A DNA stretch of 37,144 nucleotides, from the NCBI GenBank assembly GCA_037834085.1, contig JBBMKC010151467.1, positions 1-37,144 of the forward strand, written 5' to 3'. A program made the position numbers and the translations under genes. Shown piece after piece: positions 13,336 to 16,300 of the stretch. Every line of letters starts with the position of its first letter. Within the stretch, counting starts at the first letter, position 1. The stretch comes from Bipalium vagum. Its lineage: Eukaryota. The notes beneath the pieces were generated by a model, which was given only the letters and a program-made list of their open reading frames with translations, did no database searches and was not told the origin of the DNA.

Positions 13336-16300
13336 CTGGAAATATGAACTGATCATAAAATAATACAATGGTCTCGCAATTCGGATTTCCGATCAAAATA
13401 TATACAAATTTCTCAAAAATCTTTACTTTTTCCCGTTAAATCTTTGTTAAAAATCAGTTAAAAATGGAAGTTTAAAAATTTCAAAAAATAAATAAAGTTG
13501 TCATCGACTAAATATTTCTGTTTCAGCAATCCCGGGATTTAGAAAATAATATTGTTATTGATAAACATTCGTCGAAATTTTGTATCATTAATAATAAATG
13601 AAAATAAAGCTTCTTCGATTTTAATACATCTAATAAACCAATGAAAAATTAAAATGAATTAGGACCATAGTGTCATCTGTTAGTTACTGCCACGTTATCT
13701 ACACTTTCAGAATTCCTTAGATCAACATTGAGTAAAATATTTATTTGATGAAAATAATTGAATTGTTGAAAAAGCGGCTTTTTATTACTTATTTAATTAA
13801 TTATCTAAAATTTTTATTAAGATTAATTTAATTATTTAATTTTTAAAAAGAAATTTATTTAATTTATTAAAAATTATTGGAAACATTTATTTTACATTAA
13901 TCATTACTTTAAAATTTGTTCTTTAAAATATTGACAAATTATGTCTTATCTATCATTAATTAAATTTTAATCATTAGTGTCAATTGTTAAAAGATTTTAT
14001 GATTTTTATAATTAAAAATTTTTTCTTATAATAATTTATATAATAATAATAATAATAATAATAATTATTATTATTATAATTATAATTTGAAAATAATATA
14101 TAAAATAACTTAAGTTTTTACTTCTAAGACAATAATAAAGGCTTGTGGAAAACTCATGAAACCGTAATATGTTTGTAATATGAAAAATAAAAAAATTTAA
14201 TTGATTTTAAAAAAAATTGCAATTTTAAGATATTTTATTTTTCATATAATACATTTTTCAGATTTCGAAATAAATAAAAAAACAATTACAAAGTAATCCG
14301 GAACATTTTATTGTCTGTCTCGGTTTTATGTTACTATTCACTAAGAAATTCTTTAATTCAAAAGCCCGTGTATATAAAAAATAATTCGAAATTAATTTTA
14401 TTAATAAGAGTCTTAAAATATTTTTTTACTAAAAAAGTCTAAAAAAAATAATAATAATAAAAATAATGAATAATACATAATATTTTAGGCGTCAAAATAT
14501 TATTTTTTCTTATCGAATCCAAAATTATATATAAATATAAATAATTAAATTGATTTTGCTACTATTAAATTGTTACAAAAAGTTGATTAAAAGCATTTTT
14601 TTCTAAGAAATTCTAATCGAGTTCTCCGATTTCCACGTGACAAAAGTAACGTAACGAAATCTCATGTCCGTAAAGAAACTTGATTTCTTAAAAGTAAAAG
14701 TCAACCTTAAATTTTTCCAATTTTACTGAATCACGGATAGATAATGGTAGAAAAGAGTTTAAAATATTATTGTTTATGATTGCTAGGTTATTATCGTTGT
14801 CGATATCACTCGGATTCATTTAAAGATGCTTTATAAACGATCTTTATTAACTTACTACTTAAACAAAGTAATATAATTTTAATTATTATTACTTTAAATT
14901 TAATTATTAATTAAAATTTAATAATATTAAAATAATTGTTATAAAACGTAAAACTCTTAATTAAACTTTTCTTAATTAAATTCTATGAATTATTTATTTA
15001 AGAATTTTGTATTATTTTAGATTAGTTTTAATTGCACCCCTACAATTATATTGAAAATTAAAGTCATAAATTGAAATAATCTTCTAAAATAAAAACATTC
15101 TAAAATTGAACCACATCTCTAAAAAATAAAGCTGTGAGGTTTAAATTTTTAGAGATATGGTTCAATTTTAAAATGTTTTTATTTTAGAAAATTATTTCAA
15201 TTTTTAACTGGTTATAAGTTAAAAGAAGAGTGATTTCACAATAAGCCTGGTTAGCAGATATCTACACATTCCAATTGAAATAACTGAATATTCAGAATAA
15301 CAAATATAAAATAAACAGGCAAATATTTACTGCTTAAAATGAGCAGGAATATATAAACAAAGTTGTGGTTCTAGGTTCTCGACGAATACTTACATATAGT
15401 ATAATAATATTTTTAGCAAAGTAATTTATTTATGGATTATATATTAATATTAAGTAATTGTTTTTATAAATATACACTTAACAAATTATAAATAAATAAA
15501 TATATTATTTTTCAAACATTTTTAACACACAAAATTCTATTTATACTACTATCTTGAAACATGTTTCGATTTCTTCTTTCAGATCTTCTTCAGTCAATAA
15601 AGTTCGAAGAATACAATTGACTGAAGAAGATCTTTTATTTTTTGCAGTTTATCCTTTACCGCATGTACTGCAGCCAACCTGTTCGGCATAGAGTCAATCA
15701 CTTTTGAGCAAAAGTTCATGGTAATTTCGTTAACCAAAACAAGTTTAATTATTTCAATTAAATTTAGCGATGACGTAGGATTATGCAGTGAAACTTTGTT
15801 TTAGAATTTTCCAGCAGTTCTCAATGAGTGATAGATCTGGAGAGTTTCCTGGCCACGGACCAGAACATTAACATTATTATTAATAAGCCAAACCCTGCTA
15901 ATGAGTGCCTGATGGCACGGCCCACCATCATGTTGGAAATAATCACAATTTTTAATTGCAAGATACGGTTTAACTTTTTTTCTAGAATCGTTTTATAGAT
16001 ATTTGCATTAACGTTTCATTTGGAGATAGAAACCAGAATCCACAGGAATAGGAGTAAAATAAATGAGAGGGCCACCCTATTAATATGAAGGAACATATTG
16101 ACAATTGGTTCCTTGATCAAGATAAATGCAAAACAAGAACTTAAGGACGAGTCTCATACTTATAGAATTAATTATTGCAATCATTTCAATAAAAGTGAAA
16201 ATTTCACAAAAAATATTTTTACTTACCTTCGTCTGGAGTAATTAAACCATGTCTGATCAAGAAATCGATTAAGACTAATGCAGAAGTTGGCTTGAATCGT

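Follow-up and report, generated by a model that had tools for sequence, protein, structure and literature searches.

The perfect inverted repeat which covers a hammerhead motif, in what appears to be the last intron of a Nudix-family gene, is very probably part of a tiny inactive end of a Penelope-like retroelement: a 5'-truncated copy with the hammerhead stands head-to-head with a shorter inverted copy. We have studied it in a window of 37,144 nucleotides, which is the whole stretch of DNA analysed. The locus holds two copies of a very high-copy family in opposite orientation, and the junction between them is found at single-copy level. The feature is real, but most likely it is ordinary retroelement debris with a known head-to-head architecture and not a purpose-built off-switch. 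Its parts and their neighbours are the following:

13280–13335, minus strand: putative last coding exon of the Nudix-family host gene (in frame, GT-AG ends)
15516–15598, minus strand: sense fragment of the high-copy repeat, 5'-truncated at 15598, with a fuzzy 3' end at about 15516–15531 (contig depth, loose ends)
15554–15597, minus strand: minimal type I hammerhead (core, stems and cut-site anatomy; match to a custom model)
15599–15603, no strand: putative junction filler of about 5 nt between the two truncated 5' ends
15604–15633, plus strand: second copy, inverted and 5'-truncated, about 30 nt long, head-to-head, ending inside stem II (loose-end match and 18/18 arm)
15616–15633, plus strand: 18-nt "antisense arm", the stretch which the inverted copy has in common with the sense copy (exact reverse complement of 15581–15598)
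15634–15646, no strand: 13 nt between the inverted copy and the Tc1 remnant, with a weak low-complexity target-site-duplication candidate inside
15647–16000, minus strand: remnant of a Tc1-type transposase, decayed and truncated a few codons short of the stop; upstream limit approximate (PF13358, E 4e-5, below the curated cut-off)
16227–16323, minus strand: putative penultimate coding exon of the Nudix-family host gene (in frame, GT-AG ends)
30262–30393, minus strand: upstream Nudix exon which identifies the host gene (PDB 3dup match)

The host gene is assigned to the Nudix family by the last of these exons, which matches the MutT/nudix entry PDB 3dup with E 4e-5. Judging from in-frame exons and GT-AG ends, the hammerhead would lie in sense orientation in the last Nudix intron, 13336–16226. 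When 12 pieces of the window were compared with Pfam, 11 of them had no match.

The two arms of the inverted repeat, 15581–15598 and 15616–15633, are exact reverse complements over 18 bp, separated by a spacer of 17 nt. The antisense arm spans the 5' side of stem I, the CUGAAGA core and the 5' side of stem II. All this had been described accurately, letters and coordinates included, in an earlier sequence-only reading of the same DNA. No other perfect inverted repeat in the window is as long, if spacers up to 60 nt are considered. A length of 18 is reached in none of 30 block shuffles, and its analytic expectation is 8e-4 per window. The 18-mer has no further occurrence in the window, even with up to 3 mismatches allowed. 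The hairpin has a folding energy of -28.3 kcal/mol (z -5.0), which beats 200 of 200 shuffles.

The hammerhead itself is complete on the minus strand. Stem I has 4 bp, 15597–15594 with 15557–15554. The core CUGAAGA is found at 15593–15587, followed by an extra base after A9 at 15586 and by the pair G10.1-C11.1. GAAA is at 15567–15564 and U17 at 15558, so that the motif at 15554–15597 contains the conserved core CUGANGA ... GAAA ... UH. Stem II has 3 contiguous pairs and a mismatched fourth one; by eye, two more pairs are possible across a 2-nt bulge. Its length in other motifs of the same type varies from 1 to 7 pairs. Stem III is palindromic: an 8-nt self-complementary stretch has a predicted duplex energy of -6.4 kcal/mol, with which a dimer could form. 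This anatomy agrees with the minimal type I hammerhead that had been proposed, with its extra base and palindromic stem III, and places the predicted cut at the proposed position, between 15558 and 15557. A search with hammerhead models, which had also been suggested, gave a divided answer. Rfam lists no hammerhead among its 8 matches at E<=10, while a model made from 22 metagenome motifs of the same type matches 15552–15599 with 34.7 bits and E 2e-9, a result which is partly circular because the 22 motifs were picked by the same core. With this model no second hammerhead appears in the window under E 0.09.

Minimal type I hammerheads with a small palindromic helix III, of the Drosophila virilis, rotifer, shrimp and mosquito type, are described in the accessible part of PMC4209133, and the window core is of this kind. 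It shares with them the extra base between 9 and 10.1, the G10.1-C11.1 pair, the palindromic helix III and a short helix I (4 bp, within their range of 2–5 bp). It differs from them in helix II, which has 3 contiguous pairs instead of 6–8 bp with a bulge allowed. A high genomic copy number and mostly solitary, truncated copies are further points in common. In their case a pLTR flanks an ORF with reverse transcriptase (RT) and GIY-YIG domains, whereas for the window type the link with such an ORF is known from a locus in another organism, L093. There an RT ORF (RVT_1, E 8e-9) ends 260 bp upstream of a motif of the same type, and its C-terminal GIY-YIG-like match is weak (E 0.002, below the cut-off). 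The presence of this ORF beside the motif ties the motif type to Penelope-like elements.

The abundance of the motif was studied with 480 contigs of the one public sequencing run in which the locus is present; we aligned them to 15420–15779 at 80% likeness. The hammerhead belongs to a very high-copy dispersed repeat: in these contigs the depth over 15540–15599 is thousands of times the single-copy level. The summed contig depth is 63,125 at 15564–15575, and 16–20 in the two contigs which have the window sequence unchanged; such a sum is not a copy number, but the two levels differ by about three orders of magnitude. The repeat spans roughly 15516/15528–15598, with loose ends at 15519, 15524 and 15531. 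The sense fragment likely comes from a Penelope-like element and represents its pLTR end. Only two of the 40 variant rows listed (of 81) fall within the repeat, and both are minor; one of them changes U17 (15558) from U to A in 33 family contigs, and the hammerhead rule permits A. The Tc1 remnant differs from most contigs of its family at four listed positions. The hammerhead copy matches the family majority and so, by its sequence, looks young. The contrast which had been stressed between the 18/18 identity of the arms and the decay of neighbouring elements therefore falls away; comparison motifs show a similar identity.

The second copy is apparent at the 5' end of the first. At 15598 we find 41 contigs which diverge from the window into a common loose end, whose consensus agreement is only 0.67. 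By eye, the reverse complement of this loose end has 9 of 10 letters in common with the plus strand at 15606–15615, or 11 of 12 if the match is started at 15604 with a 3-base gap. Since the upstream sequence of the family thus matches 15604–15615, most of the 17 nt which had been taken as a hairpin loop are element sequence of the inverted copy. The junction appears to be specific to this locus, because a 177-nt contig at single-copy depth (19.5) spans it with no differences; the public run is possibly the sample behind the window assembly, and this support is then not independent. An assembly artefact was considered and judged unlikely, as that contig was assembled separately. The contig overlay listed no strand-changing joints, and for such short arms it is uninformative.

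Insertions with this architecture have been described. In the available parts of PMC8557442 and PMC3846280, Penelope-like insertions have an inverted, 5'-truncated copy beside them, are joined head-to-head and carry a tail of 30–40 bp on one side. The locus agrees with the inverted insertions of EN+ Penelope elements in these two sources: the inverted copy is 5'-truncated and is found immediately upstream of the sense copy, and the 3' ends of both copies face outward, with one side longer. Unlike the insertions described there, it is extremely short (copies of about 83 and 30 nt) and its inverted copy ends within stem II; the extension on one side is about 53–65 nt, and no clear target-site duplication was found. 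Such a duplication is optional in inverted insertions of EN+ Penelope-like elements; in A. vaga it has 8–10 bp. Around the window copies the search gave AT-rich candidates only, none of them convincing; one is a low-complexity sequence of 8 bp, 15635–15642, repeated at 15505–15512. The inverted copy probably arose at integration, as described for Penelope-like elements, and the reverse transcriptase of the element itself may have produced the inversion. Its shortening may have taken place at insertion, or by a later deletion which would also have clipped the adjacent Tc1 remnant. At the cut end of this remnant, 15647, 25 contigs leave the window.

A short inverted duplication might also have arisen by local DNA repair or by a replication template switch, either at the break which shortened the Tc1 remnant or later; such a duplication would be equally neutral. 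Templated inverted insertions occur at repair junctions, the arm is unusually short, and only 13 bases separate it from the truncated Tc1 end. We nevertheless find this origin unlikely. The inverted copy holds about 12 nt of family sequence which are absent from the sense copy, so that it was not copied from the sense copy now present, and the head-to-head orientation is the known pattern of a Penelope-like element.

That the arrangement is common among related motifs is apparent from metagenome sequences: when these were scanned for the same core and stem III, at least 101 loci with 103 motifs were obtained. For the count of arms we dropped 5 duplicate loci, kept those with at least 250 bp of flank and searched within 400 bp. 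Among the matches listed, 23 of 71 loci have an inverted copy over the core on the upstream side and 0 of 90 on the downstream side (Fisher p 6e-10); the loci are from other organisms and are probably not mutually independent. Counted by motif instead of by locus, the values among the matches listed are 24/72 and 0/91; for well-formed motifs, with both stems of at least 3 bp, they are 15/34 and 0/50. The 23 comparison arms among these matches have 36–204 nt, an identity of 84–98% and gaps of 0–211 nt. All 23 are longer than the window duplex of 18 bp, which ends 6 nt from the core, compared with 7–105 nt for the arms among the matches listed. Being the shortest and ending nearest to the core, it covers hardly more than the catalytic part. 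Among the matches listed, 14 of 24 comparison motifs are identical over these 18 positions, save one position forced by the search pattern. A mismatch right after the core in 22 of the 24 comparison arms turned out to be an artefact: the pattern selected for A at a position which is T or C in the partner copy. The family-specific pattern had no match in viral contigs and none in genome contigs. A relaxed pattern gave 23 viral and 3 genome-contig matches, rejected as chance: none of these 26 prokaryote and virus matches has both stems of at least 3 bp, versus 55 of the 103 metagenome motifs listed.

The sequence-only reading had preferred a built-in or switchable lock and had mentioned a by-product of Penelope insertion as its alternative. 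A lock as function is not supported, and it is the alternative which agrees with the data: the arm belongs to a longer inverted copy of the family, and the arrangement recurs at 23 of 71 same-type loci among the matches listed. Perfect antisense "locks" over hammerhead cores appear from these loci to be a routine result of Penelope insertion, and should be interpreted with caution.

Folding predictions indicate how much there would be to lock. For an open core with stems I and II formed, the predicted probabilities are 8e-3 (motif alone), 3e-5 (spacer included) and 3e-18 (arm also included). In the window hairpin the predicted pairing of core and arm has a probability of about 1.00. The proposal that the arm would sequester the core in an 18-bp hairpin is thus supported by the model: the hairpin would form in the pre-mRNA and bury the core. 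According to the same predictions the lone motif would barely fold even without the arm. Stem III requires a partner molecule, and the window contains no second hammerhead in cis. With no fold predicted for the motif by itself and no partner in cis, the hairpin is likely without consequence. It had also been pointed out that the antisense arm is transcribed first. This order results from the geometry of every head-to-head insertion, whichever the direction of the host gene.

Conserved intronic ribozymes, such as the amniote hammerheads and the CPEB3 HDV-like ribozyme, are conserved single loci with stable folds. The window motif is one of many repeat copies, lies beside transposon debris and is predicted not to fold alone. 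In place of the single locus of a domesticated intronic ribozyme we find a dispersed repeat family. The likeness to the amniote and CPEB3 ribozymes, as they appear in the accessible part of PMC6765202, consists in the intronic position on the sense strand. The same part of this review summarizes the cleavage of dimeric hammerheads.

A broader role of selection is very improbable in our opinion: the head-to-head Penelope architecture would by itself silence the hammerhead in read-through host transcripts, and selection would keep self-locked copies in sense introns and purge unlocked ones. If this were true, the locus would be a minimal example, trimmed to the catalytic core alone. An enrichment of locked copies in sense introns would give evidence, on a population scale, for RNA cleavage by minimal Penelope hammerheads in vivo, a question left open in the available parts of PMC11167929, PMC8557442 and PMC4209133. 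A narrow literature search for antisense-sequestered Penelope-like hammerheads gave unrelated titles only, and a search of this kind cannot establish absence from print.

The least probable reading is that the hairpin was selected at this locus as a lock or switch, which would shield the Nudix pre-mRNA from self-cleavage or gate it. It is true that the arm covers exactly the 5' side of stem I, the core and the 5' side of stem II, and that with it the predicted active-like fold falls from 3e-5 to 3e-18; however, a lock of the same kind is predicted in each of the 24 folded comparison motifs with an inverted copy, the core being paired to the arm at P>=0.98 among the matches listed. The motif is intact and sense-intronic, but it is also a young-looking copy which matches the family majority. 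A duplex of 18 bp with about -28 kcal/mol has no evident route for switching. Some room for selection is left by a 2026 preprint, in the accessible part of which hammerhead-bearing retrozymes are under-represented in Xenopus introns. Against a need for protection, a single minimal motif did not cleave and dimers cleaved at a low level in the experiments given in the available part of PMC4209133. In the corresponding part of PMC11167929 the ribozyme is dispensable for insertion in vitro, and Anolis RNA-seq is described without read ends at the cut site.

Some further features of this and other loci may be mentioned. Positions 1–2124 of L093 represent a near-intact 3' part of a Penelope-like element, with the RT and GIY-YIG ORF, the hammerhead and a terminal (TA)n tract. 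Two other comparison loci, L081 and L090, have two complete hammerheads head-to-head on opposite strands, about 150–230 nt apart; pairs on opposite strands at 100–700 bp are described in the available part of PMC4209133. An 86-aa metagenome protein (P0121) is 97% identical to the Nudix exon at 30262–30393, so that a close relative of the organism is present in that metagenome collection. The window also contains a divergent multi-exon DNA topoisomerase II gene, at 131–8498 on the plus strand. The exon which we examined has at most 59% identity to any of 120 listed homologues; the best 10 of these 120, with 55–59%, are a mixture of nematodes and arthropods. Judged by these homologues, the organism is a divergent invertebrate.

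Other repeats are found in the same gene region. The intron which contains the hammerhead also has a MITE-like foldback at 15062–15209, with 69-bp arms, 90% complementary, and a 10-nt spacer; Rfam gives only sub-threshold miRNA matches for it. An element at 31057–31502 has 97-bp terminal inverted repeats (95% complementary) which flank a short ORF with no Pfam match; we take this ORF to resemble the C-terminus of a mariner transposase. Further stretches, at about 21000–21500, 24870–26050, 26650–27900 and 33000–33700, are presumably decayed Tc1/mariner-like remnants, from motifs in their ORF translations, and all of them lie within the long upstream Nudix intron.
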